Assembly (NCBI RefSeq): GCF_050320075.1 | Contig: NZ_CP190018.1 | Strand: one strand, 5' to 3' | Length of the DNA: 64,000 bases | Source of the DNA: Escherichia coli | GTDB taxonomy: Bacteria > Pseudomonadota > Gammaproteobacteria > Enterobacterales > Enterobacteriaceae | In this document: positions 1,916 through 58,031 of the stretch, one piece after another | How positions within the stretch are numbered: the stretch's first letter is position 1 | How the letters are laid out: every line of letters begins with the position of its first letter | The notes under the pieces: model-generated | Seen by the model: only the letters and a program-made list of their open reading frames with translations | Databases searched by the model: none | Told to the model about the DNA's origin: nothing | Program-made: the position numbers and the translations under genes

Positions 1916-3829
1916 TTACTTACGACCTGCCAGCAGTTCCAGCACTTCATCCACGCTGGTGGTGTGTGCCAGACGCTCGATGACAGACTCATCATCCAGT
2001 GCATTGGTCAGGCTGGTGATAACCTGAATGTGCTCGTTGTTACGGGCAGCAATACCAATCACCAGACGGGCAATGTCATCTTCTTCTTCACCGAAGCGCA
2101 CGCCTTCCGGGTACTGGCAGAACACCACGCCCGTTTTCAGTACGCGATCTTTCGCTTCAACCGTACCGTGCGGTACCGCGATGGACTCACCCAGATAAGT
2201 CGGGGTCAGTTTTTCACGATCCAGCATCGCCTGAACGTATTCCGGCTCAACGTAACCGCCTTTCACCAGCTGCTCGCCAGCAAAACGAATCGCTTCTTCT
2301 TTGGTGGCCGCTTTACGACCGAGGAAGATGTTCTCCGCGCCTAGCTTGAACAGGTTAGCACTGGAATCATCAAAGCTGTCTTTCAGACTGTCTTTCACTT
2401 TCACTTCGTTTTCAGTATGGCGCTGGGCAGCAACCAGACGTTCGGTCAGGCTGGTGTACAGGCCGCTGTCGAGGAAGTTGGTCAGCGAAATATGCTGTGC
2501 CTGCGGAACCTGGCGCATAGCGCGTTCGGTCAGGTCACGGTGAGTGATGACCAGGTCCACATCTGGCGGCAGGTTGTTGATCGCGCTGTTAGTGACCGAA
2601 ATCTGCGACAGACCTGCATCCTGAATTTTCTTACGCAGCACACCTGCGCCCATCGCACTGGAACCCATACCGGCATCACAGGCAACGATGATTTTACGTA
2701 CGTGGCTCAGGTCGTTAGTCACATCGCCCGCAGACAGCGGAGACGCGCCTTTAGACTCAGCTTTCATGTCCTGCATACGACGAGTTGCTGCTTCAATATC
2801 ATCTTCTTCTTTCACTTTGCTGGTTTTCAGCAGAATGGCAGAGACAACGAAGGAGACAGCCATCGCCGCACACACACCCGCGATGTTAGCGAAGTATGCA
2901 CCTTTTGGTGTCATCGCCAGTACAGCAAGGATAGAACCCGGAGATGCCGGAGAAACCAGACCACCGCCCAGGATAGTCAGCGTGAACACGCCAGTCATAC
3001 CACCGAGGATAACGGCCAGAATCAGACGCGGATTCATCAGCACATACGGGAAGTAGATTTCGTGGATACCGCCCAGGAAGTGGATGATTGCCGCACCGCC
3101 CGCAGACTGTTTAGCGCTACCACGACCAAAGAACATGTACGCCAGCAGCACGCCCATACCCGGACCTGGGTTAGCTTCAATCAGGAAGAAGATGGATTTA
3201 CCCAGTTCATGGGACTGCTGAATGCCCAGCGGCGAGAAGATACCGTGGTTAATGGCGTTGTTGAGGAACAGGATTTTCGCCGGTTCAACAAAGATAGACG
3301 CCAGCGGCAGCATGTCATGGACAACCATGAAGTTAACGCCCGCAGCCAGCATTTTGGACAGGGCTTCAACAATCGGGCCAATGCCGAGGAATGCCAGAAT
3401 AGCGAGGATCATCCCGATGATGCCTGCGGAGAAGTTATTCACCAGCATCTCAAAACCGGATTTGATCTTACCGTCTACCCAGCGGTCGAAGTGCTTAATG
3501 CACCAGCCGCCCAGCGGACCTGCAATCATAGAACCTAGGAACATCGGCATGTCTGCGCCGACGATAACGCCCATGGTGGTAATGGCACCGACTACGCCGC
3601 CACGTTCGCCGCCTACCAGCTTACCACCGGTATAACCGATCAGCAGCGGCAGGAGATAAGTGATCATCGGCCCGACCAGCTTCGCCAGCGTCTCGTTCGG
3701 TAACCACCCTGTTGGAATAAATAACGCGGTGATGATACCCCACGCGATAAACGCGCCGATATTTGGCATCACCATGTTGCTGAGGAAACGACCAAAGCTT
3801 TGCACTTTGATCTTAATATCGGATGACAT
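1916..3829 (-). CDS. mtlA: PTS mannitol-specific EIICBA component (637 aa)
   Basis: 637-aa ORF recognised as MtlA: membrane EIIC domain, then EIIB and C-terminal EIIA domain. Confidence 0.95.
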   Translation of the reverse strand: MSSDIKIKVQSFGRFLSNMVMPNIGAFIAWGIITALFIPTGWLPNETLAKLVGPMITYLLPLLIGYTGGKLVGGERGGVVGAITTMGVIVGADMPMFLGSMIAGPLGGWCIKHFDRWVDGKIKSGFEMLVNNFSAGIIGMILAILAFLGIGPIVEALSKMLAAGVNFMVVHDMLPLASIFVEPAKILFLNNAINHGIFSPLGIQQSHELGKSIFFLIEANPGPGMGVLLAYMFFGRGSAKQSAGGAAIIHFLGGIHEIYFPYVLMNPRLILAVILGGMTGVFTLTILGGGLVSPASPGSILAVLAMTPKGAYFANIAGVCAAMAVSFVVSAILLKTSKVKEEDDIEAATRRMQDMKAESKGASPLSAGDVTNDLSHVRKIIVACDAGMGSSAMGAGVLRKKIQDAGLSQISVTNSAINNLPPDVDLVITHRDLTERAMRQVPQAQHISLTNFLDSGLYTSLTERLVAAQRHTENEVKVKDSLKDSFDDSSANLFKLGAENIFLGRKAATKEEAIRFAGEQLVKGGYVEPEYVQAMLDREKLTPTYLGESIAVPHGTVEAKDRVLKTGVVFCQYPEGVRFGEEEDDIARLVIGIAARNNEHIQVITSLTNALDDESVIERLAHTTSVDEVLELLAGRK

Positions 3830-4149: not shown

Positions 4150-4365
4150 AGATATTTTCTTACGGCGTTCACCTGATGTGATCTACAGCATGTTATGCCT
4201 TCGTCATGAAATCGTTATGTAACTAAGCAACTCATCACCTCTTAAAATTATTCTTTGGTGTTATGGCGAGAATCGCGAACCCGGATTATTGTCAAAATAT
4301 CAGCCTGACTCCCTTCTGGCTGCCAGCCAAAAAACAACACTGATAAACGTGAATCCGAGGCAGAT

Positions 4366-4728
4366 ATGTTTCTAAACTATTTCGCGTTGGGAGTGCTGAT
4401 CTTCGTCTTTCTGGTGATTTTTTATGGAATCATCGCGATACATGACATCCCTTATCTGATTGCCAAAAAGCGCAACCATCCCCATGCCGACGCTATTCAT
4501 ACGGCGGGCTGGGTGAGCCTGTTTACTCTACATGTTATCTGGCCGTTCCTGTGGATCTGGGCGACGCTCTATCAACCGGAGCGCGGCTGGGGCATGCAGT
4601 CACATGTTGCGTCGCAAGAGAAAGCGACTGACCCGGAAATCGCCGCACTTTCTGACCGAATTTCCCGGCTGGAGCATCAACTCGCCGCCGAGAAAAAGAC
4701 TGACTATTCCACGTTCCCGGAGATCTAA
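4366..4728 (+). CDS. yibI: Small inner-membrane protein YibI (DUF3302 family, 120 aa)
   Basis: ATG at 4366 preceded by gagg RBS; two hydrophobic helices; recognised as YibI; paralog of yiaW at 19625. Confidence 0.85.
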
Positions 4729-4730
4729 AT

Positions 4731-5867
4731 ATGGATCTATTGATTGTTTTAACTTACGTGGCGCTGGCGTGGGCGGTCTTTAAAATCTTCCGCATTCCGG
4801 TGAATCAGTGGACGCTGGCGACGGCGGCGCTGGGAGGCGTGTTTCTGGTGAGTGGTTTGATTTTGTTGATGAACTACAACCACCCTTACACTTTTACCGC
4901 GCAAAAGGCAGTGATAGCGATCCCCATCACGCCACAGGTGACGGGAATTGTTACTGAAGTCACTGACAAGAATAATCAGCTTATTCAAAAGGGCGAGGTG
5001 CTTTTTAAACTCGACCCGGTTCGTTACCAGGCGCGAGTTGACAGACTTCAGGCTGACCTGATGACGGCGACGCATAATATAAAGACGCTGCGCGCGCAGC
5101 TCTCTGAAGCGCAGGCCAACACCACCCAGGTTTCAGCGGAGCGCGACCGTCTGTTTAAAAATTATCAACGTTATCTGAAAGGCAGCCAGGCGGCGGTGAA
5201 TCCGTTCTCGGAACGTGACATCGACGATGCGCGGCAAAACTTCCTCGCGCAGGACGCGCTGGTGAAAGGCTCGGTGGCGGAGCAGGCGCAGATCCAGAGC
5301 CAGCTCGACAGTATGGTTAACGGCGAGCAATCGCAGATTGTGAGCTTAAGAGCGCAACTTACTGAAGCAAAATATAACCTTGAGCAGACTGTCATTCGCG
5401 CGCCGAGCAATGGCTACGTTACTCAGGTACTGATCCGCCCAGGTACATACGCAGCTGCCTTGCCGTTGCGTCCGGTGATGGTTTTCATCCCCGAGCAAAA
5501 ACGGCAAATTGTCGCCCAATTTCGGCAAAACTCGCTGTTACGTCTGAAACCCGGCGATGATGCGGAAGTGGTGTTTAACGCGCTACCTGGGCAGGTGTTC
5601 CACGGCAAACTGACTAGCATTTTACCTGTCGTGCCAGGCGGTTCTTATCAGGCGCAGGGGGTATTGCAATCATTAACGGTCGTGCCCGGCACGGACGGTG
5701 TGCTGGGAACCATTGAACTGGACCCTAACGATGATATCGATGCCTTACCCGACGGCATCTACGCCCAGGTGGCGGTTTACTCCGACCATTTCAGCCATGT
5801 TTCGGTGATGCGGAAAGTGCTGCTAAGAATGACCAGCTGGATGCATTATCTTTATTTGGATCATTGA
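4731..5867 (+). CDS. yibH: HlyD-family membrane fusion protein YibH (378 aa)
   Basis: ATG 3 nt after yibI stop; N-terminal TM helix, coiled-coil region; paralog of yiaV. Confidence 0.85.
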
Positions 5868-6324
5868 GGGGGGCGGGGGAGATTATGGAACTTTGCTCCC
5901 TGCAAGGACTAATTATTTTTGCATATTATTTCATCGGCTGTGATGATTTTTCGTTAATATCCATTATGTTAAGAAGTTCGGGATGAGTGTGAACTCATTG
6001 GATTTTTTATCCGTCTTGATCTGCCGAAGGATCAGACTATACATTGTCGAGATCGCAATGATGATATGAGTTGTTCCTCTGCCACGGCTCTAATCAAAAA
6101 AGAGCAGGAGTGCTTTTCCATCTATTGCGATGATGGCTTTATTATCTGAAGGATGACAGTCACATTTAAAAATATTTAATTTATAGATCACAATGTAGGT
6201 TCATGTAATATATGTATACAACTATTTTTCTCTTCACTTTTAATTATCGTATTCATTATAACACTAAGTTAAAAAAACTCCTGGAGAGTGAGTTATTAAT
6301 ATGTTTTTAAATATAATTAAGTTA

Positions 6325-6846
6325 TTATTCATCGATGCATTTTATAGAATCATCAATGGCTACAATAGTACTATTAACTCTCCAATTTATATTTTTATTA
6401 TCATTGCAAATATTAACTGAATCTATATCAATGATTTTTTTATTTTTATCTTTTATTTTGTTTACAGTTTCAATGCAATCAGCGACAAGTTGGTGTGGAT
6501 TTAGATTCTTCAGATATGGTCTTATGATCTTTCCCTTGCTTAATAAATAGCATGTATAGGATTCGGAAAGTCCAGCATCTATTTTGTACATCATTATTCT
6601 AGATAAGGATGTGAGAAATGCCTTGTTATCATTAGCAGCCATATATGCCAGTCCGAGTTCAGCCTCTGCGGCTTTACATGAAAAATAGCTAAGTGAACAC
6701 GCTTTTCGTCCCTCTTGGGTACTGGCTGATATTAGTGCCCATAATATTGCCTTGTCTGCCAAATCCAACTCTCTCTGAAATTGGTTTACAGTAACTGCAT
6801 TCGCAGAAATAGAGAAGAAAAGCACAATTGTTAATAACCTTGTCAT
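6325..6846 (-). CDS. Hypothetical secreted protein (173 aa) in rhs-associated AT-rich block; possible orphan immunity protein
   Basis: N-terminal signal peptide MTRLLTIVLFFSISANA; starts 4 nt after the stop of the decayed rhs-relic ORF; very AT-rich codon usage. Confidence 0.5.
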   Translation of the reverse strand: MTRLLTIVLFFSISANAVTVNQFQRELDLADKAILWALISASTQEGRKACSLSYFSCKAAEAELGLAYMAANDNKAFLTSLSRIMMYKIDAGLSESYTCYLLSKGKIIRPYLKNLNPHQLVADCIETVNKIKDKNKKIIDIDSVNICNDNKNINWRVNSTIVAIDDSIKCIDE

Positions 6847-6850
6847 ATTT

Positions 6851-7190
6851 CTAGTCCGTCACTGTTAATGTGCTATCTGGCTCTGAAAATATTAGCTCAT
6901 TTAATTTTTGCATGTCATTAGATGAACCAGTTATACAACCCTCGGAACAGAATCGAGGTCCTAAAGATGGACCAAAAGCGTTTAAACAACTATGTGTTAA
7001 AAATCCATCACGATTATACGTTTCTGTATTTGCTGACGGTACTAAACGTATACCATTAGGTTTTCTATTGGTTGCTCCAGGACTGTTAAGCAAGCCTCGT
7101 CCGGTTTGCTTCATTGAGTTCTCCACTTTAGACTATTGGACTATCTTTCAACATGGCATCGCCTTAGTATACCGCTGGTTTTCCGCTCAT
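6851..7190 (-). pseudogene. Decayed relic of an rhs/PAAR-type 5' end (frame-disrupted)
   Basis: Minus-strand frame from ATG at 7188-7190 reads MSGKPAVY*GDAMLKDSPIV*, compare intact rhs N-terminus [21 protein letters not shown]; adjacent frame (ORF track 6851..7126) has GIRLVPSANTE, compare [11 protein letters not shown] in rhs. Confidence 0.55.
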
Positions 7191-7214
7191 TGTTAATTTT
7201 CTCTTTCGTTCATT

Positions 7215-7625
7215 TCACTTAATTTTCAGTTTTTTCCAAAAGTCAATATTCCCTTCTAATAAAATTTTTTCTATGGAATCTTCATTAATTTTATTATTAG
7301 AGCATATGACATTATCTTGAACGCCATATGACACCACCCCGTTTTTATCAATATAATATCTGTCTTTACCATCAATAATATAAATCCTAACATTTTTATC
7401 ATCAAAATGGTAACACTCATTACTAGACCTGTTCAGTAACATTAATAACTTCTCACGATTTATCTGTAATAATTTTTGTGCACCATCTTTTATTGCAAAA
7501 TTTTCAATTTTACTTTTAGTGACAGGGGAATATGTTTGGATGCGAAAAGGCATCCTATAATGGAAAACATCAGCTATACAGCAAGATGAAAAAAATACGG
7601 AAATAAAATACAGACATACTTTCAT
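7215..7625 (-). CDS. Putative Rhs immunity protein (136 aa) with N-terminal signal peptide or lipobox
   Basis: Sits 57 nt downstream of the rhs stop on the same strand; strong RBS aggag 5 nt before ATG; N-terminus MKVCLYFISVFFSSCC; AT-rich. Confidence 0.6.
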   Translation of the reverse strand: MKVCLYFISVFFSSCCIADVFHYRMPFRIQTYSPVTKSKIENFAIKDGAQKLLQINREKLLMLLNRSSNECYHFDDKNVRIYIIDGKDRYYIDKNGVVSYGVQDNVICSNNKINEDSIEKILLEGNIDFWKKLKIK

Positions 7626-7682
7626 ACCATCTCCTAAACTGGTGATATATTAAAAACATACCCAAAAGCAATATAAAAATGT

Positions 7683-10600
7683 TTAATATTTCATTCTTGC
7701 TGGCAAGCCCAACTCTTTACGAAATGGGTTTTCATATTTATCAACATTAGCCATCGAGTCAGTTCCATCGTCTTTCATTCCCTTTGCATGCCCCATTTCA
7801 TGCGCAAGAACCACACTCAACAGAGTGGGTTTCATGGCACATGCTTTGTTTTTTCCTTGATATACACATGAGCTATGGTCGTTATCAATATCAATGTAAA
7901 AACTATATTCAGTATCATCGTAGCATGTTTGGTTTATGCCTTTTCTTAATCCTCTAAATATATATTCATGCTCTGATGACTCTAATTCTTCTGTTATTTT
8001 ATGTCCAAACTTTGTTTCTGCTACAGCTTTATATGCTTCTTTTAAAGTTTTTTGTGTACTTTCATCTCCCTGAAAAGACACTTTTAACCCTAATGGATCG
8101 AAACCAGATACCGGATTCAACGGATACTGATAAAAATTCCATCCCCCCTTAAGCCCAATCGGATCCTGAGTGATATACCGCCCCTGCAGCGGGTCATAAT
8201 AGCGGTGGCGGTTGTAATAGAGGCCGGACTCCTCATCATACTGCTGACCCGGCAGGCGGATGAGCTGCTGCAGCTGGTGCGGGTTCTCTTCATTCAGCAG
8301 GTTGCCCCATTCATCGTATTCTGCGCACCATTCTGTTGCCCCTTCCGTGCTGACAAGCGCCAGCGGCAGGCCGCGATGGTCGCAGTGGTACAGGTGGATT
8401 TTTCGCGCCGGCGTGTACACCGGGTCCATCTGGTTTTGTATCTGCTCCACCGTCAGGCCGCACGATGCCAGCCAGCGGCGGCTTTCCTCACTCACCCGGT
8501 CAGCCAGGATTTCACTTTCCAGCCGGTCGAGCATCTGCACCAGCACCGGCGGGAACACCACACTGCCACCGTCTTCACCGCCGGACTGCTGAAGCGCATC
8601 CGCCAGGCTGCGGCGCTGCGTTTTCGCCAGCTCACCGGTGGCAGTTTCAACTCTGATGAGTGGCGTGAAGCTCCCCGGCTGATAAACCGTCTGGATGCGG
8701 GTTCTGTCGTTCTGTATTGTGGTCAGCCGGTCGCCGTCCCAGCCGTACCAGGTCACTTCCGGTTTCCGTGACAGCGACATCCAGCCCGTCAGGTCCCGTT
8801 CACGCCGCCACACCCGTTTTGCCACCCTGCGGCCCAGCGGGTCGTAAAGATAGCGACTTTCGACCAGCGGCTCTGCATATTGTGTCCGCGTGTAGTGCAC
8901 CAGCCGGTGCCGGCTGTCGTAATGATACCGGTGAGTCCGCTCATCATCCGTGCGGATAACCCCTTCCGGGATGAGGTCGGTTTTCTCTGTCAGCCTGCCG
9001 TGACGGTCATACCGGTAAAGATAGTGCGCGTCACGGGCGATACGGTTATCCGGCCACATGCTGAGGGTGCTGTCCGGGTGCAGCTCCGGGTCGGGCAGGC
9101 GGTTGCCTGCCGGGTCCGTGGCATACGGGATGCGGATATCCAGGTTCGCTGCCGTGGTGTGGACGCCGGTCAGCCTGCCGGTGTCGCTGTAGCTGTAACT
9201 CCGGGTCTGGCGCGGGCTGCTGATGCGGATGAGTTCGCCGTTGTCGTTCCAGGTGTAATCGCGGTCATACTGCAGGCTGTTCAGGTGCTGGCTCTGTAAC
9301 TGCCCGGCAGAGGTGTAAGCGGTGGTGAGTTCATAACGGCCGAAGCTGCGCAGCGTTTCCCGGTGCAGGCGGTCGCGGGTGTACTCCACCAGCGGTGTGT
9401 CGCCGAGTTTCATGCCTGACAGCCAGCCGCTGCCGTAGGTCAGCCATTCCACGGCGGGCAGGCTGTCCGGTATACAGCGGTTCGCCAGTCCCTGCGCGTT
9501 GTAAGCGTGTCTGGTTTCATGCTGCCAGAGCAGTGCTTCCGTCTGCGGGTGATGCACCGTCTGGCGCTCACCGGTCAGGCGGCCTTTCTCATCATACCCG
9601 TAATGCACCGTCACCCGGTGGCCTTCGCTGAGATGGCTGATGCCTGTCAGCCAGCCGCGTTCGTCATACTGCCACTGCTCTGCCGGTTCACCATTCACCG
9701 TTCGCTGTGTGATGCGGTCTGCTTCGTCATAGTGCCAGTGGGTGACCAGCCCCTCATCCTCGCTGCGGATAAGTTTGCCGGTCAGGTCGTGGTGATAACG
9801 CTGTGTGCGGCCGTCAAAGCCGGTTTCCTGTATCAGCCGGTCAAGTACATCGTAACGGAAGGTGGTGTGGCTGCCGTTTTCACTGGTCAGGCGGATGACC
9901 CGCCCGGCAGCATCGTATTCCATACTGCGCGTCAGACCGCCCTGCGTGGTACGAACGGGCTTTCCCCACGCATCGTACTGTGTCCCGTTTCTGCTGCCGT
10001 CCGGGGCAATGACGGCGGTCAGGTCACCGGCGGCGTTGTATTCATACCGCGTTTCATGGCCCTGCGTGTCTTTCACCGCAATTAACTGTCCACGGCTGTC
10101 GTATGCGCGGTACTGACTCAGCCCTTCCTCGCGGTGCACCGCCGTCATCTGACCAAAACGGTCATGGTCATAACGGGTTACATAACCGGAACAGTCAGTG
10201 ACGGTCAGCAACTGACCGTAACGGCTCCATGTCATGGTTTTCCGGCTGCCGGTGGCATCCTCCGTTGCGCAGGGTAAGTCACTGTGTGGATTATCATAAC
10301 GGTAGCGGGTGATATCGCCGTTGTGTGCGGTTTCCTGAATCAGACGGCCGGATTCATCATATTCCCGGCGCAATTCCAGCCCGTCAGGCCCGGTGGCTGA
10401 CGTTAACTGGCTGTGGTGGTTATAGTAAAATGCCGATGCCCTGCCATCCGGTGTGGTGATGCGCGTGATGAGTCCCGTCACCACATCCGGGCTGTACTCA
10501 GTCGTCCGGCCTGCGGCATCCGTCTGTGCCTTAAGCCTGCCCACCGCGTCAAACTGACTCTGCGTGACGCTGCCGTCCGCGTGTTCCTTTTTCACCACCC

Positions 10601-11825
10601 GCTTCAGCCCGCCTTCGCCCTGCGTGTGCAGCACTTCACGGCGGTCCAGACTGTCGGTGATGGTGATGCGGTCTTTCTCATACTGATACGTGTAGCTTAA
10701 GCCTGCCGGGTTTAGCTGCTCTGTCACCCGCCCGTCGCTGTCGTAACGGTAACGGATTTCTGGCCGGCCCGCGCGGTGGTGCGCCACCATCCGGCCCCGG
10801 TATTTATCATCGTAAGTAAAGCTGCGCACCTGTTTGCCACTGCGGTCATACACCGCCGCCAGTTCGCCGCGTGGCGTCCAGCCATAGCGCACCAGCGGCG
10901 CGGCAGGTAAATTCTCCGGGTATTCCGGGTCGTGTGTCAGCCACACGGCAGACAGACGGATACCGTTGTCCCGGCCATATTCCGTGTAGTCCGGCAGGGT
11001 ATCAGGAAAAGCGGACGGTTCCGTCCCGCCGGAAGAGGCCTGCTGCCGGGCCTCTTCTGCCCGCTGCGCCTGCGTGGTCAGTACCAGCCGGAAGTGACGC
11101 CCGGCACCATCCGTCACGCCGGTGATTTCGCCGCTGAATTCACCGCCAGCCTCACGGTGAAACGTCTGTGTGCGCCCGAAGCGGTCCACCAGCCCGGTCA
11201 GTACCCGGTACGGCGGCAGCGGCGCGGGCAGCACCTCATCCGCTTCCGGCACCCGCTCACACCAGCCGAGCAGCCACCACGGCCCCTGCGGACTGTTTGT
11301 CGCCAGATAACGATGCGGACTTAAGCGGAGTTCTTCCGGCAGCGCCTGCCAGAGTGCGGTCAGCCGGTGACCTTCATCCAGTTTCAGGACACCGCCACGC
11401 ACCAGCCAGAGTGACTCGCTGCGGCTGTAACCGTCCTCACCGGGAAACAGGTGCTCAAAATACAGGCTCCTGCCGCCGTTATCACTGAGTATCAGTGTGT
11501 TATCGCGCAGCTGTAGGCGGATATCCGCAGGCATTTTCCAGCCGGGGCCGAGGCTCCCCACCGGCGCGGGCGTTTTTGTCCGGTAACTGCTGTAGGTGCG
11601 GGAGAGGATGAACGGCAGCGGGCCGGGCAGGGCAAGGTCGGTTTCGCCGGGAAGGACCTTCGCGCCGAGCAGCGGATTGACCGGATGGCCGGACGTCACC
11701 CCGCCGGGGCACACCGAACAGGCCACGCCGGTGGGGGCACCGATGCGCACCCCGGCTGAACCCTGGACAATGCTACCGCCATACTGCGTCATGTCGCCCT
11801 GACGCGCCGCCGGTTTTCCGCTCAT
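7683..11825 (-). CDS. rhsA: Rhs-family polymorphic toxin (1380 aa) with PAAR-like N-terminus, YD-repeat core and variable C-terminal toxin tip
   Basis: N-terminus [11 protein letters not shown]..., many YD repeats, core ends ...[28 protein letters not shown]; the gene symbol reflects locus position (next to yibF-selAB), not the toxin type. Confidence 0.9.
7686..8084 (-). other. Rhs C-terminal toxin domain (133 aa after DPLGL) with HExxHxxGxxD motif
   Basis: Motif [12 protein letters not shown] encoded at 7770-7802; sharp drop to AT-rich composition begins at the DPLGL boundary (8085-8099). Confidence 0.6.
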
Positions 11826-12053
11826 CTGCTCATCCTTGTTTTATCGGGTTATTTGTCTGCTGACAGGCGAAACCCTACAGATTTATAAGAAAGCCTTAAG
11901 TGAGATATCTGTCAGATAAGAACAATTAGGAAAATATTTATATCACCATGATAAATATGTGATTTATTGGGAAGTAACAAACCATCAACATTTTCTGCCC
12001 TTTTTCCCATCACCAGGCCATACTGATATTTTTCCTCGCACAAAGGACTCGGC

Positions 12054-12662
12054 ATGAAACTCGTCGGTAGCTACACCAGCCCGTTTGTACGCAAACTTTC
12101 TATTCTGTTGTTAGAAAAGGGCATAACTTTCGAATTTATTAATGAACTGCCCTATAACGCGGACAACGGCGTGGCGCAATTTAACCCGTTAGGAAAAGTG
12201 CCGGTGCTGGTGACCGAAGAGGGCGAATGCTGGTTTGATTCGCCGATCATCGCTGAATATATTGAATTAATGAATGTCGCTCCGGCGATGTTGCCGCGCG
12301 ATCCGCTGGAGTCGTTGCGGGTGCGCAAAATTGAGGCGCTGGCGGATGGCATTATGGATGCCGGACTGGTATCGGTGCGTGAACAGGCGCGTCCGGCGGC
12401 GCAGCAGTCTGAAGATGAATTGTTACGCCAGCGGGAGAAAATCAACCGCAGTCTGGATGTGCTGGAAGGATATCTGGTCGATGGCACACTCAAAACCGAT
12501 ACGGTCAATCTGGCGACTATCGCCATTGCCTGTGCCGTCGGATATCTCAATTTCCGCCGCGTTGCGCCAGGTTGGTGTGTCGACCGCCCACACTTAGTCA
12601 AACTGGTCGAAAACCTGTTTAGCCGCGAAAGTTTTGCTCGCACCGAACCGCCAAAGGCTTGA
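12054..12662 (+). CDS. yibF: Glutathione S-transferase-like protein YibF (202 aa)
   Basis: 202-aa ORF recognised as YibF; divergent from rhs. Confidence 0.88.
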
Positions 12663-14151: not shown

Positions 14152-15992
14152 TTATTGCGACTGCCGGACACGTTGACCACGGCAAAACAACCTTATTGCA
14201 GGCGATTACTGGCGTAAATGCCGACCGTCTGCCGGAAGAAAAAAAGCGCGGCATGACCATCGATCTCGGTTATGCCTACTGGCCGCAGCCGGATGGTCGC
14301 GTGCCTGGTTTTATCGACGTACCCGGTCATGAAAAGTTTCTTTCCAACATGCTGGCGGGCGTTGGTGGTATCGATCACGCGCTGTTGGTGGTGGCGTGCG
14401 ATGACGGCGTGATGGCTCAGACTCGTGAGCATCTGGCGATTTTGCAGCTGACCGGTAACCCGATGCTGACAGTGGCGCTGACCAAAGCCGATCGCGTGGA
14501 CGAAGCGCGTGTTGATGAGGTTGAACGCCAGGTAAAGGAGGTGCTGCGGGAATACGGTTTTGCTGAGGCAAAACTGTTTATCACCGCAGCAACCGAAGGT
14601 CGGGGAATTGATGCCCTGCGCGAGCATTTGCTTCAGTTACCAGAACGTGAACACGCCAGCCAACATAGTTTCCGCCTCGCGATCGACCGTGCATTTACCG
14701 TAAAAGGTGCCGGGCTGGTCGTCACCGGTACGGCGTTAAGCGGGGAAGTGAAGGTAGGCGATTCACTCTGGCTGACTGGTGTAAATAAACCGATGCGTGT
14801 ACGTGCGCTGCATGCACAAAACCAGCCAACAGAAACCGCCCATGCCGGGCAGCGTATCGCGCTTAACATCGCGGGTGATGCGGAAAAAGAGCAGATTAAC
14901 CGTGGCGACTGGCTGCTTACCGATGCGCCGCCGGAGCCGTTCACACGGGTGATTGTCGAGCTTCAAACCCATACACCGCTGACCCAGTGGCAGCCGCTGC
15001 ATATTCACCACGCCGCCAGCCACGTCACGGGACGCGTTTCGCTGCTGGAAGATAACCTTGCCGAGCTGGTATTCGACACGCCGCTGTGGCTGGCGGATAA
15101 CGATCGCTTAGTGCTGCGCGATATCTCGGCCCGCAACACGCTGGCGGGGGCGCGTGTGGTGATGCTTAACCCGCCGCGTCGCGGTAAGCGTAAGCCGGAA
15201 TATCTGCAATGGCTGGCGTCTCTTGCACGAGCGCAGAGCGATGCCGATGCGTTATCTGTTCATCTGGAACGCGGAGCGGTTAACCTTGCAGATTTCGCCT
15301 GGGCACGGCAGCTCAACGGCGAAGGGATGCGCGAACTGCTGCAACAGCCTGGCTATATTCAGGCTGGTTATAGCTTGTTGAATGCGCCGGTTGCCGCCCG
15401 CTGGCAGCGGAAAATTCTCGACACATTAGCGACTTATCATGAGCAACATCGCGATGAACCTGGTCTTGGGCGCGAACGTCTGCGACGTATGGCGTTGCCA
15501 ATGGAAGATGAAGCGCTGGTACTGTTGCTGATTGAAAAGATGCGCGAAAGCGGCGACATCCTCAGTCATCACGGTTGGCTGCATCTGCCGGATCATAAAG
15601 CGGGCTTCAGCGAAGAGCAGCAGGTCATCTGGCAAAAAGCAGAGCCGCTGTTTGGTGACGAACCGTGGTGGGTGCGTGACCTGGCAAAAGAGACGGGAAC
15701 CGACGAGCAGGCAATGCGCCTGACGCTACGCCAGGCGGCGCAGCAGGGGATAATTACCGCGATCGTTAAAGATCGTTATTACCGTAACGATCGGATTGTC
15801 GAGTTTGCCAATATGATCCGCGATCTCGATCAGGAGTGTGGTTCAACCTGCGCGGCGGATTTCCGCGATCGCTTAGGTGTAGGCCGAAAGCTGGCAATTC
15901 AGATTTTGGAATATTTTGACCGCATTGGCTTTACGCGTCGTCGTGGAAATGATCATTTATTGCGCGACGCATTATTATTTCCGGAAAAATAA
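14148..15992 (+). CDS. selB: Selenocysteine-specific elongation factor SelB (614 aa)
   Basis: N-terminal GTPase motifs [23 protein letters not shown]; C-terminal winged-helix region. Confidence 0.93.
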
Positions 15993-16051
15993 GGAAATGA
16001 TTAATTAAGTTTTAAAATAAATTAATACAAAATTCTTATGAATTTAAAAAA

Positions 16052-16086
16052 AGCACATTGTTTAATGAATACAATGTGCTTTTTAT
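16052..16086 (+). terminator. Rho-independent terminator after selB
   Basis: Hairpin agcacattg...caatgtgct followed by a T-run. Confidence 0.6.
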
Positions 16087-16181
16087 TAGATTAATTTTGA
16101 TAATCAATAATACTGATCATATTTTCAAATGAAAATCCTCAGTAAGCTGCCCGCCCTTTTTTACACTTTCAGGAGTGTGTT

Positions 16182-19187: not shown

Positions 19188-19624
19188 AAACAAAGCGCAC
19201 GTTGTTACAATTTACGTTTTAAACCTACGTGCGCAATAACCCAATAACCCAGACTACGCCAACAGAAGTGCGTTTCTGGGGCGTGTTTTGCCAGGAGTTT
19301 AATCTCGCGTTTCGATGGTGAGCGGGCGAACCAGACCATAAATCACCATTGGCGTTCCGAGGCCAATCAGCAATAAACGGTAGATAATTGAAGGTTTAAT
19401 ACGCTTAATCTGTACTGTGGATGTTTTACTGGAGTTATTCATTAGTTTGGCCAATAGTTCCATTATTTCAATATGATAAGCCTCGCACTGTTGAAAAGCC
19501 AGGCTGCACATTTCAGAAAGTATATAAAAAACAATATGTCGTTATATAAATAAGGAAATTGCACCGCATTATGGTATTTCATAATATGCGTTAATTGTTC
19601 TTTTCTATATTCTCTGAGGGAAAT

Positions 19625-21090: not shown

Positions 21091-22061
21091 TCTTCGCTTT
21101 CCGCCGTTTGTTCAGGCCGCAGTTGCTGCGACTGAGCAAGCTGGTGGCGAATTTCACGCAGCATTTCATCCAGCACATACTGGACCCGCCAGGGCTGGTA
21201 TTCCCGTTTACGGAAGATAGCCATCAGATCCAGCCACCATTCATACGGGTGCTGAAAGCAGGGCACCAGCGTGCCGTCTTGCAGGTCGCTCTGCACACTT
21301 TTGTCTGGCGCAAACACAATCCCCAGGTGATTTCGTGCCAGCTCCAGCGCAGATTGCGTGTTGTCGCAAACGTAATTTCCCTTCACGCGATAATCCCGCA
21401 CCTCTTTACTCCCGGCGACGTTGAAGCGCCAGATATTCGCGTCGTCGATCATCATCGAGTCGATCAAAATACAGGAGTGATGTTCGAGTTCGTCAGGACG
21501 GCTAATGGGATGTTTCTCAAGATAGCGCTGGCTGGCATAAGCGGTTACGGCATATTGGGTAATAAAACTGGCAACCAGCGATTCATCTTTTGGTTGGGCG
21601 TAGCTGATTAAAACATCACAATCATCGGGAAATTCGACGCCTTCATAAAAGGCATTACGCTCAAGATTGCAGGTTTTTAGCGATAAGGTGATATCACCGA
21701 TATCTTTAATTTTATCGATTACATGTTTGGATAAATAGGTAATTATGCCGGTTGGTGCATAGATAGTGACCCGACCACGTTTCTCATGCTTATAATCTGC
21801 AATAAAATTATTAAGCTGCTCGTTTCTGTCCAGCATGTCGTTGATGTACGGTAACAGCACGGTGCCAAAAGGTGTGAGCATCAGCTGTCGGGTGGTTCGG
21901 TCAAAGACTTTTAAACCCACTTTTGATTCAAAATCAGCAAGATATTTGCTGACGTTGGCCTGTGCGATGCCAAGTACAGTCGCGGCATGGCTGATATTTT
22001 CACTGGCAGCGATTACCGAGATAATTTTTAACTCCCGGTACTTAAGTTGTAATTTTGTCAT
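21087..22061 (-). CDS. yiaU: LysR-family transcriptional regulator YiaU (324 aa)
   Basis: N-terminal HTH ([36 protein letters not shown]); convergent 4-nt overlap with yiaV. Confidence 0.88.
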
Positions 22062-22184
22062 CGCAACAGCCCAATTATATATAATTTTATATATTACTAT
22101 ATAAATATGAATCTTGCACCGGATAAATTGTAAGCATTACTATGCCGACTCTTTTTTATCTTATTTTAAAATGGAATACCGGAC

Positions 22185-33488: not shown

Positions 33489-33962
33489 TTAAGCTCCTTG
33501 CGGTGGCGACGTTAGAGAATTGCTACGCGTGATGAGTTGATATAAATGACGCAGTTCAAAGAATGCGATAACGAGGCTGGTGGGCAGACAAGCGGCATAC
33601 ATCAGGCCGATAGGCAAACCGAGGATCGGTGAATAATCGCTCCAGTCCTGAATTGTTTTTAGCGTTGCGCCCCAGGCCAGTGCGCCACAAATAAATAAGA
33701 TTAAGGAATGGGTAACCAGAGCGACTCGTCGCTGCCATGCGGGGGAGAGTTTCTCCACCAGAAAGGTGACCTGAACGTGGGCGTTATCCATAAAAGCCAC
33801 AATCGCGCCAATAAATGTTAACCAGACAAATAAATAACGTGACAATTCATCTACAGATAAAATGCTTGTCTGAAAACCATATCTTAAAATAATGTTTATA
33901 AACACAATACAGGAAAGTACGGCGAGATTAATCGCCAGTATTGCTTCAAGTATTTTTTTCAT
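33489..33962 (-). CDS. yiaM: TRAP transporter small permease (157 aa)
   Basis: DctQ-family 4-TM protein. Confidence 0.88.
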
Positions 33963-46078: not shown

Positions 46079-47071
46079 TTACAGCTCGCTCTCTTTGTGG
46101 AATCCGTCTTTAACTACCGTTTCTTTGATGTTGTTTTTATTCACATCGATCGGTGTCAGCAGGCGGGAGGGAACATCTTTCAGACCATTATTCAGAGTGG
46201 TATCTGCTTTTGGTTCCTGACCATTGCCCAACTCAACGGCAATTTCTGCGGCAGTATTTGCCAACAATGTAATAGGTTTATACACCGTCATAGTTTGCGT
46301 ACCGGCAGCAATACGTTTAATACCTGCGAGATCCGCATCCTGGCCGGAAATTGCTACTTTCCCTGATAAACCTTGCGCACTTAATGCCTGAATTGCCCCA
46401 CCTGCGGTGGCATCGTTTGAGGCAACTACAGCATCAATTTTGTTATTATTGGCGGTTAGCGCGTTTTCCATAATTTTCAATGCGTTTTCCGGTAACCAGC
46501 CATCAACCCATTGGTCACCAACGACTTTAATTTTTCCGGAATCAACGTAAGGTTTTAACACTTTCATTTGCCCGGCGCGGAACAGCTTGGCGTTGTTATC
46601 TACCGGCGAGCCGCCCATCAGGAAGTAATTACCTTGCGGAACAATATCGACCAGGGCTTTTGCCTGCAGTTCACCGACTTTTTCGTTATCGAAAGAAATA
46701 TAAAAATCGATATCCGCATCGTTAATCATACGGTCGTAAGCTAATACTTTAATACCTTCTTGTTTGGCTTCTTTTACAACGTTACTTAATACCTGACCGT
46801 TATACGGAATAATGACAAGAACATCGACGCCCCGGTTAATCATGTTTTCAATCTGCGACATTTGTGTTTCTTCATTGCCATTTGCAGACTGTACAAATAC
46901 TTTCGCGCCGAGAGATTCTGCCTTTTTCACAAAAATATCTCGATCTTTTTGCCAGCGTTCAAGACGGAGATCATCAATCGCCATACCTATTTTGACTTCT
47001 TTGGCGTGTGCCGCAACGTTGGTAAGCAGAAGTGAGGTGCAAAGGGTGAGTAGAATGTTCTTTATTTTCAT
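46079..47071 (-). CDS. xylF: D-xylose ABC transporter periplasmic binding protein (330 aa)
   Basis: ORF track 46079..47149 trimmed to ATG at 47071 (MKIKNILLTLCTSLLLTNVAAHA signal peptide). Confidence 0.92.
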   Translation of the reverse strand: MKIKNILLTLCTSLLLTNVAAHAKEVKIGMAIDDLRLERWQKDRDIFVKKAESLGAKVFVQSANGNEETQMSQIENMINRGVDVLVIIPYNGQVLSNVVKEAKQEGIKVLAYDRMINDADIDFYISFDNEKVGELQAKALVDIVPQGNYFLMGGSPVDNNAKLFRAGQMKVLKPYVDSGKIKVVGDQWVDGWLPENALKIMENALTANNNKIDAVVASNDATAGGAIQALSAQGLSGKVAISGQDADLAGIKRIAAGTQTMTVYKPITLLANTAAEIAVELGNGQEPKADTTLNNGLKDVPSRLLTPIDVNKNNIKETVVKDGFHKESEL

Positions 47072-47436
47072 GGTGTAGGGCCTTCTGTAGGTAGAGGACA
47101 GCTTTAATAAGTAACAATCACCGCGATAAACGTAACCAATTTTTAGCAACTAAACAGGGGAAAACAATTACAGATTTTTATCTTTCGATTACGATTTTTG
47201 GTTTATTTCTTGATTTATGACCGAGATCTTACTTTTGTTGCGCAATTGTACTTATTGCATTTTTCTCTTCGAGGAATTACCCAGTTTCCTCATTCCATTT
47301 TATTTTGCGAGCGAGCGCACACTTGTGAATTATCTCAATAGCAGTGTGAAATAACATAATTGAGCAACTGAAAGGGAGTGCCCAATATTACGACATCATC
47401 CATCACCCGCGGCATTACCTGATTATGGAGTTCAAT

Positions 47437-53640: not shown

Positions 53641-55710
53641 ATGTCTGAGAAAACTTTTCTGGTGGAAATCGGCACTGAAGAGCTGCCACCAAAAGCACTG
53701 CGCAGCCTGGCTGAGTCCTTTGCTGCGAACTTCACTGCGGAGCTGGATAACGCCGGCCTCGCACACGGCACCGTTCAATGGTTTGCTGCTCCGCGTCGTC
53801 TGGCGCTGAAAGTAGCTAACCTGGCGGAAGCGCAACCGGATCGTGAAATCGAAAAACGCGGCCCGGCGATTGCTCAGGCGTTCGACGCTGAAGGCAAACC
53901 GAGCAAAGCGGCAGAAGGCTGGGCGCGTGGTTGCGGTATTACCGTAGACCAGGCTGAGCGTCTGACTACCGATAAAGGTGAATGGCTGCTGTATCGCGCC
54001 CACGTGAAGGGCGAAAGCACCGAAGCACTGCTGCCGAATATGGTTGCGACTTCGCTGGCGAAACTGCCGATCCCGAAACTGATGCGCTGGGGCGCAAGCG
54101 ACGTGCACTTCGTGCGTCCGGTGCACACCGTGACCCTGCTGCTGGGCGACAAAGTCATTCCGGCTACCATTCTGGGCATTCAGTCCGATCGCGTGATTCG
54201 CGGCCACCGCTTTATGGGCGAGCCGGAATTCACTATCGACGATGCCGATCAGTATCCGGAAATTCTGCGTGAGCGCGGTAAAGTCATCGCCGATTACGAA
54301 GAACGTAAAGCGAAGATTAAAGCCGATGCTGAAGAAGCGGCGCGTAAGATTGGCGGTAACGCTGACTTAAGCGAAAGCCTGTTGGAAGAAGTCGCTTCGC
54401 TGGTGGAATGGCCGGCTGTGCTGACCGCAAAATTCGAAGAGAAATTCCTCGCGGTGCCGTCTGAAGCGCTGGTTTACACCATGAAAGGTGACCAGAAGTA
54501 CTTCCCGGTGTATGCGAACGACGGCAAACTTCTGCCGAACTTTATCTTCGTTGCCAACATCGAATCGAAAGATCCGCAGCAGATTATCTCCGGTAACGAG
54601 AAAGTCGTTCGTCCACGTCTGGCGGATGCTGAGTTCTTCTTCAATACCGACCGTAAAAAACGTCTGGAAGATAACCTGCCGCGCCTGCAAACCGTGCTGT
54701 TCCAGCAACAGCTGGGTACACTGCGTGACAAAACTGACCGCATCCAGGCACTGGCTGGCTGGATTGCTGAACAGATTGGCGCTGACGTTAACCATGCTAC
54801 CCGTGCGGGCCTGCTGTCTAAGTGCGACCTGATGACCAACATGGTCTTCGAGTTCACCGACACCCAGGGCGTTATGGGGATGCACTACGCGCGTCACGAT
54901 GGCGAAGCGGAAGATGTTGCAGTGGCGCTGAACGAGCAGTATCAGCCGCGCTTTGCCGGTGATGACCTGCCGTCTAGCCCGGTAGCCTGTGCGCTGGCGA
55001 TTGCTGACAAGATGGATACTCTGGCGGGTATCTTCGGTATCGGCCAGCATCCGAAAGGCGACAAAGACCCGTTTGCGTTGCGTCGTGCCGCACTTGGCGT
55101 ACTGCGTATTATCGTTGAGAAGAACCTCAACCTTGATCTGCAAACGCTGACCGAAGAAGCAGTGCGTCTGTATGGCGATAAGCTGACTAATGCCAACGTG
55201 GTTGATGATGTTATCGACTTTATGCTCGGTCGCTTCCGCGCCTGGTATCAGGACGAAGGTTACACCGTTGACACAATCCAGGCGGTACTGGCACGTCGTC
55301 CGACGCGTCCGGCAGATTTTGATGCCCGTATGAAGGCAGTATCGCACTTCCGTACTCTGGATGCGGCAGCGTCACTGGCGGCGGCAAACAAGCGTGTATC
55401 TAACATTCTGGCGAAGTCTGACGAAGTGCTGAGCGATCGCGTGAATGCTTCTACTCTGAAAGAGCCGGAAGAAATTAAACTGGCGATGCAGGTGGTTGTG
55501 CTGCGCGATAAACTGGAGCCGTACTTTGCTGAAGGTCGTTACCAGGATGCGCTGGTCGAACTGGCAGAGCTGCGTGAGCCAGTTGATGCTTTCTTCGATA
55601 AAGTGATGGTCATGGTTGATGACAAAGAATTGCGTCTCAACCGTCTGACCATGCTGGAGAAACTGCGCGAACTGTTCCTGCGAGTTGCGGATATTTCGCT
55701 GTTGCAGTAA
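53641..55710 (+). CDS. glyS: Glycine--tRNA ligase beta subunit (689 aa)
   Basis: Recognised as GlyS. Confidence 0.95.
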
Positions 55711-55725
55711 TAACGTCGTTATTAA

Positions 55726-55754
55726 AAAGCCTGCCATCTGGCAGGCTTTTTTTA
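55726..55754 (+). terminator. Rho-independent terminator of glyQS
   Basis: agcctgcc-atct-ggcaggct stem followed by TTTTTTT. Confidence 0.8.
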
Positions 55755-56007
55755 TCGCTAAATAATACAGCAACCTTTAATAATCTTCTGATGAATAAAG
55801 ATTATCTCATATATTAATTTTATGAGATTTTTTTAGGATTATATCAAGGAGAAGAAACGAACTTATTAAGCTAGAATAGCCACGGGTGCTTGAGACTGTT
55901 TGTCTCAGGTATTCACCGAAAGGCAGACAGAGAAAAGCCCCACCTGACTATAAATCAAAGTGTACTGCACCCATTTTGTTGGACGATGAAATGGAATAGC
56001 CCCTAAT

Positions 56008-56529
56008 ATGTCAAAGCCAAAATACCCTTTTGAAAAGCGCCTTGAAGTCGTGAATCACTACTTCACAACTGATGATGGTTACAGGATCATCTCGGCACGT
56101 TTTGGTGTCCCCCGAACCCAGGTCAGGACATGGGTTGCCCTCTATGAAAAACATGGAGAAAAAGGTTTAATTCCCAAACCTAAAGGCGTTAGTGCTGATC
56201 CAGAGTTGCGTATTAAGGTCGTGAAAGCTGTGATCGAGCAGCACATGTCCCTTAATCAGGCTGCTGCTCACTTTATGCTTGCTGGTAGTGGTTCTGTAGC
56301 CAGGTGGCTGAAGGTCTATGAAGAGCGCGGAGAAGCTGGTTTACGCGCGCTCAAGATTGGCACCAAAAGAAACATTGCAATATCAGTTGATCCAGAAAAA
56401 GCGGCATCAGCATTGGAGCTGTCAAAAGACCGACGCATTGAGGATCTTGAAAGGCAAGTTCGATTTCTTGAAACGCGGCTTATGTATCTAAAAAAGCTGA
56501 AAGCCTTAGCTCATCCCACGAAAAAGTAA
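56008..56529 (+). CDS. insJ: IS150 OrfA (InsJ, 173 aa)
   Basis: HTH protein ending ...LAHPTKK; stop overlaps the A-rich slippery run. Confidence 0.92.
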   Translation: MSKPKYPFEKRLEVVNHYFTTDDGYRIISARFGVPRTQVRTWVALYEKHGEKGLIPKPKGVSADPELRIKVVKAVIEQHMSLNQAAAHFMLAGSGSVARWLKVYEERGEAGLRALKIGTKRNIAISVDPEKAASALELSKDRRIEDLERQVRFLETRLMYLKKLKALAHPTKK

Positions 56530-57377
56530 AAGTACTCAACGAGCTAAGGCAGTTTTATCCTCTTGATGAGCTTCTCAGGGCTGCGGAGATACCGCGCAGT
56601 ACGTTTTATTACCATCTAAAGGCTCTCAGCAAGCCTGACAAGTATGCGGACGTTAAAAAGCGTATTGGTGAGATTTATCACGAGAATAGAGGCCGATACG
56701 GATACCGTAGGGTAACGCTGTCTCTTCATCGAGAAGGGAAACAGATTAACCATAAAGCTGTTCAGCGCCTGATGGGAACCCTCTCACTTAAAGCAGCGAT
56801 TAAGGTCAAGCGATACCGCTCTTACAGAGGAGAGGTAGGGCAAACCGCCCCTAATGTTCTCCAAAGAGATTTCAAGGCTACGCGGCCAAACGAGAAGTGG
56901 GTTACCGATGTTACTGAATTTGTAGTCAATGGGCGCAAGCTGTATTTGTCTCCAGTAATAGATCTCTTCAACAACGAAGTTATTTCTTACAGCCTTTCGG
57001 AAAGACCAGTGATGAACATGGTTGAGAATATGCTCGATCAGGCATTCAAAAAGCTTAATCCTCACGAGCATCCTGTTCTGCACTCTGACCAGGGATGGCA
57101 GTATCGTATGAGAAGATATCAAAATATCCTTAAAGAACATGGTATTAAACAAAGCATGTCCAGAAAAGGCAATTGTCTGGATAATGCTGTGGTGGAGTGT
57201 TTCTTTGGAACCTTAAAGTCGGAGTGTTTTTATCTTGATGAGTTCAGTAATATAAGCGAACTGAAGGATGCTGTTACGGAATATATTGAATACTACAACA
57301 GCAGAAGAATTAGCCTGAAATTAAAAGGTCTGACTCCAATTGAATATCGGAATCAGACCTATATGCCTCGTGTTTAA
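56526..57377 (+). CDS. insK: IS150 OrfB (InsK) transposase frame, expressed as OrfAB fusion by -1 frameshift
   Basis: -1 frame relative to insJ beginning at AAAAAG run (56521-56526); DDE integrase core (...HSDQGWQY..., ...[17 protein letters not shown]...). Confidence 0.88.
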
Positions 57378-57763
57378 CTGTCCAACTTTTTGGGGTCAGT
57401 ACAAAGTGAGGCCCCTCTATGCATAGACACCATAAGGTTAGCCTCTTACTCGTTGGAAATCAACACAGGGGGCTGGGAATGCCGCAGAAATATAGATTAC
57501 TTTCTTTAATAGTGATTTGTTGCACGCTTTTATTTTTCACCTGGATGATAAGTGATTCACTGTGTGAATTGCATATTAAACAGGGGAGTTATGAGCTGGC
57601 GGCATTTTTAGCCTGCAATTTGAAAGAGTAAGAGTCTTCGGCGGGAAGTTATTCCCGCCTTTCTTACGGCGTTGCGCATTCTCATTGCACCCAAATTTAT
57701 TTTTCACAAAAATAATAATAGATTTTATTACGCGATCGATTATTTATTTCCTGAAAAACAAAT

Positions 57764-57790
57764 AAAAAAATCCCCGCCAAATGGCAGGGA
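57764..57790 (-). terminator. cspA rho-independent terminator
   Basis: On minus strand tccctgccatttggcgggga followed by a T-run. Confidence 0.7.
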
Positions 57791-57818
57791 TCTTAGATTC
57801 TGTGCTTTTAAGCAGAGA

Positions 57819-58031
57819 TTACAGGCTGGTTACGTTACCAGCTGCCGGGCCTTTAGCGCCGCTTTCGATGGTGAAGGACACTTTCTGACCTTCGTCCAGA
57901 GATTTGTAACCATCGTTCTGGATAGCAGAGAAGTGTACGAACACGTCTTTAGAGCCATCGTCAGGAGTGATGAAGCCGAAGCCTTTGTCAGCGTTGAACC
58001 ATTTTACGATACCAGTCATTTTACCGTACAT
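57819..58031 (-). CDS. cspA: Major cold-shock protein CspA (70 aa); codon 2 is TAC (Tyr) here
   Basis: [70 protein letters not shown]; RNP motifs KGFGFI and VFVHF. Confidence 0.93.

Follow-up and report, generated by a model that had tools for sequence, protein, structure and literature searches.

In the 64,000 nucleotides of Escherichia coli contig NZ_CP190018.1 analysed here (hereafter the window), a strongly AT-rich block at positions 5868-8084 lies between yibH and the GC-rich core of an rhs gene. The question raised by this locus is whether the block was acquired as one piece or assembled from parts with different histories. The locus is the E. coli rhsA locus, in reversed orientation relative to strain K-12. 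We find that the block is a mosaic that combines parts of two ages rather than a single strain-specific cassette. We further suggest, with high confidence, that it is the variable 3' tail of the RhsA island between yibH and yibF, made up of two successive toxin/immunity modules (Table 1).

The two ages are seen in comparisons with K-12 and with 5,426 complete E. coli genomes, which serve as the population sample throughout. The window is colinear with K-12 from 4300 to 7081. The distal part of the block (5868-7081, 55% of its length) has yibU, yibV and the 3' part of yibW as K-12 counterparts and is 92.7% identical to them, compared with 98.7% for yibI-yibH and 99.5% for yibF. Expressed as divergence from K-12, this shared AT-rich part differs by 7.3%, the rhs core by 3.7%, yibI-yibH by 1.3% and yibF by 0.5%. 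At least 80% of 5868-7214 is covered in about 67% of the genomes (3,643 of 5,426). The proximal part, 7082-8109 (1,028 bp), is found in 180 genomes, is either wholly present or wholly absent, and is always at least 99% identical where present. It is absent from K-12, which has 3.1 kb in its place, comprising the rhsA tip, yibA, yibJ, yibG, yibS and the 5' part of yibW. In strain WWCOL-236 (L003) the distal segment is 99.3% identical to that of the window, and the proximal part is wholly different. A first, sequence-only reading of this DNA had taken the whole block for one strain-variable cassette and had ascribed a longer and different set of genes to K-12. The latter is correct next to the core and incorrect for the distal 5868-7081, which is common; the former does not stand, as only 7082-8109 is rare.

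That the block is AT-rich with atypical codon usage, as had been judged by eye, is borne out by computation. The GC content of 5868-8084 is 33.6%, clearly below its flanks, compared with 51.1% for the window, 52.7% for yibI-yibH and 62.0% for the rhs core. Among all stretches of 2,217 bp in the 64 kb it is close to the lowest (z = -3.9; 0.18% are equally low), the minimum being 0.333 at 5881. The four ORFs (open reading frames) of the block have a GC content of 0.19-0.26 at third codon positions, compared with 0.57-0.61 for five core genes on the flanks and 0.71 for the rhs core, and an index similar to the codon adaptation index, with the flanking genes as reference, is 0.43-0.54 for the block ORFs versus 0.64-0.76. 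The proposed bounds at the yibH stop, with its G-run, and at the DPLGL codons were likewise confirmed. Both composition steps match homology breakpoints, 5868|5869 in comparison with genomes that have an empty site and 8109|8110 in comparison with K-12 rhsA. It should be noted that the right step is a ramp over about 8080-8140 with no single-base jump. The contrast between an AT-rich tail and a GC-rich core reportedly goes back to the earliest accounts of Rhs elements from the Hill laboratory. Other 500-bp stretches below 42% GC occur in the window at 15701-16100, 19201-19600, 21601-22100, 33601-33900, 46501-47100 and 55601-58000; the rhsA tail is longer and lower in GC than any of them. An Rfam scan of 5600-8400 gave no match at E <= 1.

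The limits of the element were read from genomes that lack it. Using a chimera of the yibH 3' end and the yibF 5' region as query, we found the two genes only 70 bp apart in 1,522 of the 5,426 genomes. Aligned base by base with one of these (L014), the window is identical up to and including 5868, one G past the yibH TGA, and again from 12017. The intervening 6,148 bp stand in place of 32 bp of empty site, which after the yibH TGA-G continues with ACTTATATCACC. Since identity to the empty site stops at 5868, the G-run is the start of the whole RhsA element. The left breakpoint of the sequence-only reading was therefore exact in position, but it bounds the entire 6.1-kb element and not just the AT-rich part. 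The right limit is uncertain within 11937-12016, a 10-mer (TTATATCACC) being common to the empty site and to about 11937-11946. The region upstream of rhs (11826-12016; GC about 0.38 at 11851-12150) is part of the element rather than of the core genome. A weak hairpin resembling a terminator (CTTTGCTCCCTGCAAGG with a T-rich tail, plus strand, 5891-5907) lies 24 nt past the yibH stop; as it is inside the RhsA element, carrier strains may owe their yibH terminator to the element.

The PxxxxDPxGL motif marks off the variable C-terminus of Rhs proteins, for which immunity genes (rhsI) and orphan modules have been described (PMC3150448). The rhs ORF of the window is intact, and its product matches DUF6531, RHS_repeat (10 stretches, E 3e-72) and the RHS core domain (E 3e-15) in Pfam. 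The core is 96.3% identical to K-12 rhsA at the nucleotide level. The homology stops at 8109/8110, three codons ahead of DPLGL, so that the incoming DNA carried its own DPLGL codons; these use AT-richer synonymous choices than K-12. As in other Rhs elements, homology between alleles thus ends at PxxxxDPxGL.

The young module begins with the Rhs tip. In isolation the tip matches Pfam Peptidase_M91 (PF14891) with 31.7 bits (cutoff 25; E 2.4e-7). A word-seeded search returned only the E. coli cluster, and a full HMMER search was needed to find relatives. This exhaustive search of 1.84 billion representative proteins gave 104 related clusters, nearly all of them at the C-termini of Rhs/YD-repeat proteins or orphan fragments, just after a DPxGL-like motif. 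The nearest tips are from Salmonella (62% identity), Hafnia (61%; its NCBI name is "M91 family zinc metallopeptidase"), a food metagenome (59%) and Rahnella (45%). Across 39 aligned homologs, six residues (H95, E96, H99, D105, N119 and R130) never vary and two more (E118 and M111) hardly do, giving the conserved pattern HExxHxxGxxD ... NENP. An AlphaFold2 model built from the homolog alignment has a pLDDT (predicted local distance difference test) of 95.8. With an HExxH zinc site and a modelled zincin fold, the tip is predicted to be a zincin metallopeptidase. Rhs proteins of this kind, PAAR-RHS-M91 effectors, have been predicted in Salmonella (PMC8867033) and in E. coli (bioRxiv 10.1101/2024.03.05.583533). 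For the Rhs-M91 protein of Shiga toxin-producing E. coli (STEC) the authors of the latter study state that neither a substrate nor any immunity homology is known.

The second gene of the young module encodes a 136-aa protein. Its ORF starts 57 nt downstream of the rhs stop and has a Shine-Dalgarno sequence, AGGAG, 5 nt ahead of the ATG. The protein belongs to no Pfam or NCBIfam family, and NCBIfam gave no meaningful match for any of the four block ORFs. A word-seeded search found homologs in Escherichia only. Translated searches of loci with diverged tips, on the other hand, revealed a homolog directly following the tip in three further lineages. The homologs from the food metagenome and Salmonella are 43% (E 1e-29) and 49% (E 3e-27) identical, and that of Hafnia is pseudogenised and aligns in two pieces at 41% and 70%. 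The synteny of tip and partner is accordingly kept in four lineages, with tips 59-62% and partners 41-49% identical. All versions of the partner have a basic residue, a hydrophobic stretch and a C-x-A site at the N-terminus, and those of Escherichia also fit a PROSITE-like lipobox rule. Conserved adjacency and parallel divergence argue for a cognate toxin-immunity pair, and on this comparative evidence we regard the 136-aa protein as the candidate cognate immunity protein. The recurring pairing also bears out the immunity candidate that the sequence-only reading had placed next to the Rhs tip.

The old module consists of orphans and relics. What had been called an rhs relic derives not from the rhs core but from a Tlde1-type tip, of which it retains only the C-terminal 77 codons. 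The Tlde1 proteins are type VI secretion system (T6SS) effectors with L,D-carboxypeptidase/transpeptidase activity on peptidoglycan, acting in the periplasm and carrying the motif (S/T)HGCh (PMC9638812). The relic matches Pfam Tlde1_dom (PF10908) at profile positions 66-107 of 120 with E 1e-3 and 20 bits, below the cutoff of 30.1. At the DNA level it is 98% identical to the 3' portion of an ORF of strain WWCOL-236 that is intact (135 aa) and does exceed the Pfam cutoff for Tlde1 (E 3.9e-8); the homology stops at about 7084-7089. The relic keeps THSC, but its N-terminal half is gone and it is not linked to any Rhs core. Because the N-terminal half is missing, it is not a functional member of the family. 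A full Tlde1 tip is present in 3,642 of the 5,426 genomes, mostly decayed; in K-12, yibW has multiple stop codons. In the three E. coli loci inspected (WWCOL-236, L019 and K-12) no full-length Rhs protein with a Tlde1 tip was found, all these tips being orphans.

The "secreted ORF" of the sequence-only reading does have a signal-peptide-like N-terminus, but its identity is that of an orphan immunity gene paired with the Tlde1 relic. The product matches Pfam Imm57 (PF15596) with E 1.4e-44 and 150.7 bits (cutoff 25) over profile positions 2-100 of 100. The gene starts 4 nt past the stop of the relic, and the same order is found in WWCOL-236, where it directly follows the intact Tlde1 ORF. In K-12, yibV (111 aa; L002, 11346-11681) is missing the part with the signal peptide as well as the last 40 residues of the 173-aa protein. 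The allele of 5868-7081 found in the window occurs with at least 99% identity in 262 genomes, and most others are about 93% identical; the orphan module seems to exist as two old haplotypes.

Beyond Imm57, the stretch of about 450 bp (457 bp) thought to be non-coding carries a decayed transposase fragment of the ISAs1 (H-repeat) family. A tblastn search with the transposase of WWCOL-236 aligned residues 96-160 of 378 at about 5967-6161 with 58% identity, an in-frame stop and E 1e-22, and at the DNA level the fragment is 79% identical to that strain over 234 bp. Only these residues of the transposase are left, and the fragment is a relic and not a complete ISAs1 (H-repeat) element. ISAs1 copies, intact or frameshifted, lie ahead of the Tlde1 tip in WWCOL-236 and L019. 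The distal rhsA tail is often hit by insertion sequences: IS1 replaces most of it in 50EVAW (L004), and IS5 lies beside Imm57 in L005.

The junction between the two modules is preserved in the trailing 133 bp of the cassette (7082-7214). Apart from a 19-nt copy of the rhs start region, this sequence has no match in K-12, WWCOL-236 or E. albertii. We also considered it as common to the E. albertii locus, and rejected this because the homology there spans only 7209-7640. The 19-nt copy (7172-7190, minus strand) sits 24 nt past the immunity stop and agrees with the rhs start from its ATG (11807-11825) in 18 of 19 positions, a score reached by 0 of 2,000 shuffles; the rhs start region reads ATGAGCGGAAAACC[A/G]GCGG (MSGKPA...). 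The copy may be a trace of a tandem rhs gene that followed the immunity gene in the donor. Ahead of the Tlde1 relic there is no fragment of rhs core, which argues that the last event was a replacement with deletion and not a displacement.

The comparisons give the following history. An older module, a Tlde1-type Rhs tip with a periplasmic Imm57 gene and an ISAs1 element beyond, became the orphan now found in about two thirds of E. coli. In the lineage to which the window belongs, a new cassette then replaced the stretch from the end of the rhs core to the middle of the old Tlde1 tip, bringing its own last core codons, DPLGL, the M91-type zincin tip, the immunity gene and about 130 bp of trailing DNA. 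The left crossover was probably homologous and inside the conserved core, and the right junction, at 7081-7089, probably illegitimate. The AT-richness would reflect a foreign, horizontally exchanged origin of tips and immunity genes. The cassette had no match in the phage collection, and in the plasmid collection it matched only two small Salmonella contigs that are probably chromosomal fragments. One of these, OX345625.1 (L020; Salmonella enterica, 4.9 kb, linear), contains the 3' end of an rhs gene with an M91 tip and an immunity homolog; its type is given as non-mobilizable plasmid, but it looks like a chromosomal contig.

As to function, what is described of Rhs proteins and the T6SS (in part in PMC3150448) suggests that the Rhs shell would enclose the tip, that autoproteolysis at PxxxxDPxGL would free it, and that a T6SS would deliver it to neighbouring bacteria. 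There the HExxH metalloprotease may attack a target in the envelope or periplasm, and the exported 136-aa protein would shield the producer by binding the tip. The envelope target is suggested by the exported immunity proteins and by analogy with VgrG2b, a T6SS metallopeptidase of the HExxH type whose toxicity is confined to the periplasm and whose periplasm-exposed immunity protein, PA0261, needs its signal peptide (PMC6899460). The intact orphan Imm57 may in turn shield against Tlde1-type peptidoglycan toxins of other strains.

Table 1. Coordinates of the RhsA element, its parts and the neighbouring genes in the window.
Feature	Position	Strand	Remarks
Whole RhsA element	5869-12016		AT-rich tail (5869-8109), GC-rich rhs core and rhs upstream region; defined against empty-site genomes
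G-run GGGGGGCGGGGG	5869-5880		Start of the element where it meets the core genome; found in K-12 and not in the empty site
Old part	5869-7081		ISAs1 transposase fragment, intact orphan Imm57 gene and C-terminal part of a Tlde1-type tip
Decayed ISAs1-family (H-repeat) transposase fragment	5932-6163	minus	Corresponds to K-12 pseudogene yibU
Imm57 immunity gene, 173 aa, intact	6325-6846	minus	Signal peptide ending ...SANA; RefSeq "Imm57 family immunity protein"
Tlde1-type tip relic, C-terminal 77 codons	6851-7081	minus	Within ORF 6851-7126; corresponds to the 3' part of K-12 yibW
Trailing cassette sequence, 133 bp	7082-7214	minus	Includes the 19-nt copy of the rhs start region, ATGAGCGGAAAACCAGCGG
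Candidate cognate immunity gene (rhsI), 136 aa	7215-7625	minus	Sec-type signal peptide, possible lipobox FFSSC
Rhs C-terminal tip, 133 aa, predicted Peptidase_M91-type zincin	7683-8084	minus	HEMGH...D...NENP
DPLGL codons	8085-8099	minus	Within the PxxxxDPxGL demarcation motif
Last codons before DPLGL, from the incoming cassette	8100-8109	minus	SGF here, TNT in K-12
rhs core	8110-11825	minus	GC 0.62; DUF6531, RHS repeats, RHS core domain (Pfam)
rhs gene, 1,380 aa	11825-7683	minus	
mtlA	1916-3829	minus	
yibI	4366-4728	plus	
yibH	4731-5867	plus	
yibF	12054-12662		Followed by selA

Several observations weigh against this account of an active toxin with its immunity protein. Pfam detects no PAAR domain in the Rhs N-terminus at E <= 0.1, although the literal string PAAR occurs there, and no vgrG or other T6SS gene adjoins rhsA at the locus, where the neighbour is yibF. 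Promoter-like consensus sites are not enriched (12 versus 10.8 expected), the AlphaFold2 model of the 136-aa protein is poor (pLDDT 57), and the tip has no sequence or fold match to the C-terminal domain of VgrG2b. Because of this last result, it is only the exported immunity proteins that point to the periplasm as the site of action. The lack of an adjoining vgrG, of a Pfam PAAR domain and of promoter enrichment would also be expected if the locus were silent or decaying, that is AT-rich DNA silenced by H-NS and uncoupled from any T6SS, with selection at most on the immunity genes; the decay of orphan toxin parts in most genomes, as in K-12 with its interrupted yibW and truncated yibV, fits this as well. 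On the other side, the 1,380-aa Rhs ORF, the invariant catalytic residues of the tip and both immunity genes are all intact, and the cassette is at least 99% identical in 180 genomes, which fits recent spread and is no proof of function. We consider a silent locus a real possibility, though an unlikely one.

It is improbable, in our view, that the M91 tip is an anti-eukaryotic effector similar to the type III effector NleD and not an antibacterial one. Self-protection genes are a hallmark of antibacterial effectors, and a dedicated, exported partner gene with a strong Shine-Dalgarno sequence directly follows the tip, accompanies diverged tips in E. coli, Salmonella, Hafnia and the metagenome, and is kept alone, as an orphan, in E. 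albertii. By analogy with VgrG2b, the tip may have dual targets.

Equally small is the probability we attach to the 136-aa ORF being an unrelated secreted protein or lipoprotein passenger, or to the tip acting in the cytoplasm with something else as its true immunity. The missing family assignment and the low-confidence structure model leave room for a passenger, and so does the situation in E. albertii. There (L007, 7001-7417; L011, 5933-6349) a copy of the gene, 67-70% identical in protein and 79-80% in DNA, is the second small gene after an Rhs protein with a different M91-type tip (HELAH) and an exported 149-aa protein. In several of these genomes the gene is called N-terminally short (112 aa), and the full frame is present. 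BLASTP finds no similarity between the 136-aa and 149-aa proteins, which indicates that they belong to different immunity families. However, E. albertii and E. coli have only about 430 bp in common (7209-7640), essentially the gene itself, and this fits an orphan immunity gene. Against a passenger also stand the position directly downstream of the tip in four independent lineages, with parallel divergence, and the absence of any other ORF between the M91 tip and the old relic. We therefore retain the 136-aa protein as the candidate immunity partner of the tip.

That the whole of 5868-8084 is a single recent strain-specific island, entirely unlike K-12, is very improbable, since its uniformly low GC and the longer, different K-12 gene set beside the core are outweighed by colinearity with K-12 up to 7081, by the frequency of the distal part, by the rarity of 7082-8109 alone and by WWCOL-236, which shares the distal segment next to an unrelated proximal part.

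The closest known system is the RhsA element of K-12, with the same yibF-yibH site, a GC-rich core and an AT-rich tail, the PxxxxDPLGL junction, and the yibW/yibV/yibU segment and core at the identities given above. It differs from the element of the window in that the 3.1 kb of K-12 hold tip A, the yibA immunity gene and two further orphan modules with core fragments, whereas we find the 1.0-kb M91 cassette; in addition, Imm57 has 173 aa here and 111 aa there, and the Tlde1 relic here is cut at its 5' end with no core fragment ahead of it. The variable tip after PxxxxDPxGL, the immunity ORF and the downstream orphans also resemble the orphan-module systems of Rhs and CdiA proteins (Poole et al. 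2011, PMC3150448). In the C-terminal displacement model cited there, displacement alone would leave a piece of core ahead of the orphan; what we see here looks like a replacement with deletion, with an apparently illegitimate right junction inside the old tip.

For the young module, the descriptions of SED_RS06335 of Salmonella Dublin (PMC8867033) and Ec154_02824 of STEC O22:H8 (bioRxiv 10.1101/2024.03.05.583533) are similar, each being an Rhs core-M91 fusion with a small envelope partner. The Salmonella Dublin partner has 110 aa and one transmembrane helix, whereas the protein described here forms a small family by itself and its signal peptide looks cleavable; the STEC O22:H8 partner has no recognised homology. 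The VgrG2b C-terminal domain and PA0261 (Tpe-Tpi) of Pseudomonas aeruginosa are a functional analogy only, because no homology to VgrG2b was detected, and do not make the tip a member of that family. The old module has the Tlde1 domain, the (S/T)HxC motif and the exported immunity partner in common with Tlde1a/Tldi1a of Salmonella Typhimurium (PMC9638812). Tlde1a is a stand-alone effector, whereas here the domain is an Rhs tip of which only the C-terminal half is left.

A system of a known kind, with the classic replacement of an Rhs C-terminus, accounts fully for the feature. Novelty is confined to one M91 tip-immunity pair, predicted from sequence comparison, and to the precise anatomy of a single replacement event. 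The architecture as a whole is textbook Rhs biology, and scanning for composition correctly flags toxin/immunity cassettes; at the same time, one AT-rich block can mix parts of very different age and population frequency. The locus provides base-exact breakpoints for one recent tip replacement at rhsA and an orphan immunity gene of the Imm57 family that most E. coli have kept intact. It also nominates an M91 zincin and a small exported protein as a putative toxin-immunity pair, for which the four-lineage synteny is strong comparative evidence. Whether M91 tip and exported partner define a family of periplasm-acting T6SS metalloprotease effector-immunity pairs in Enterobacterales (here E. coli, Salmonella and Hafnia), with an immunity gene that also moves alone on about 430 bp, we regard as an even question.

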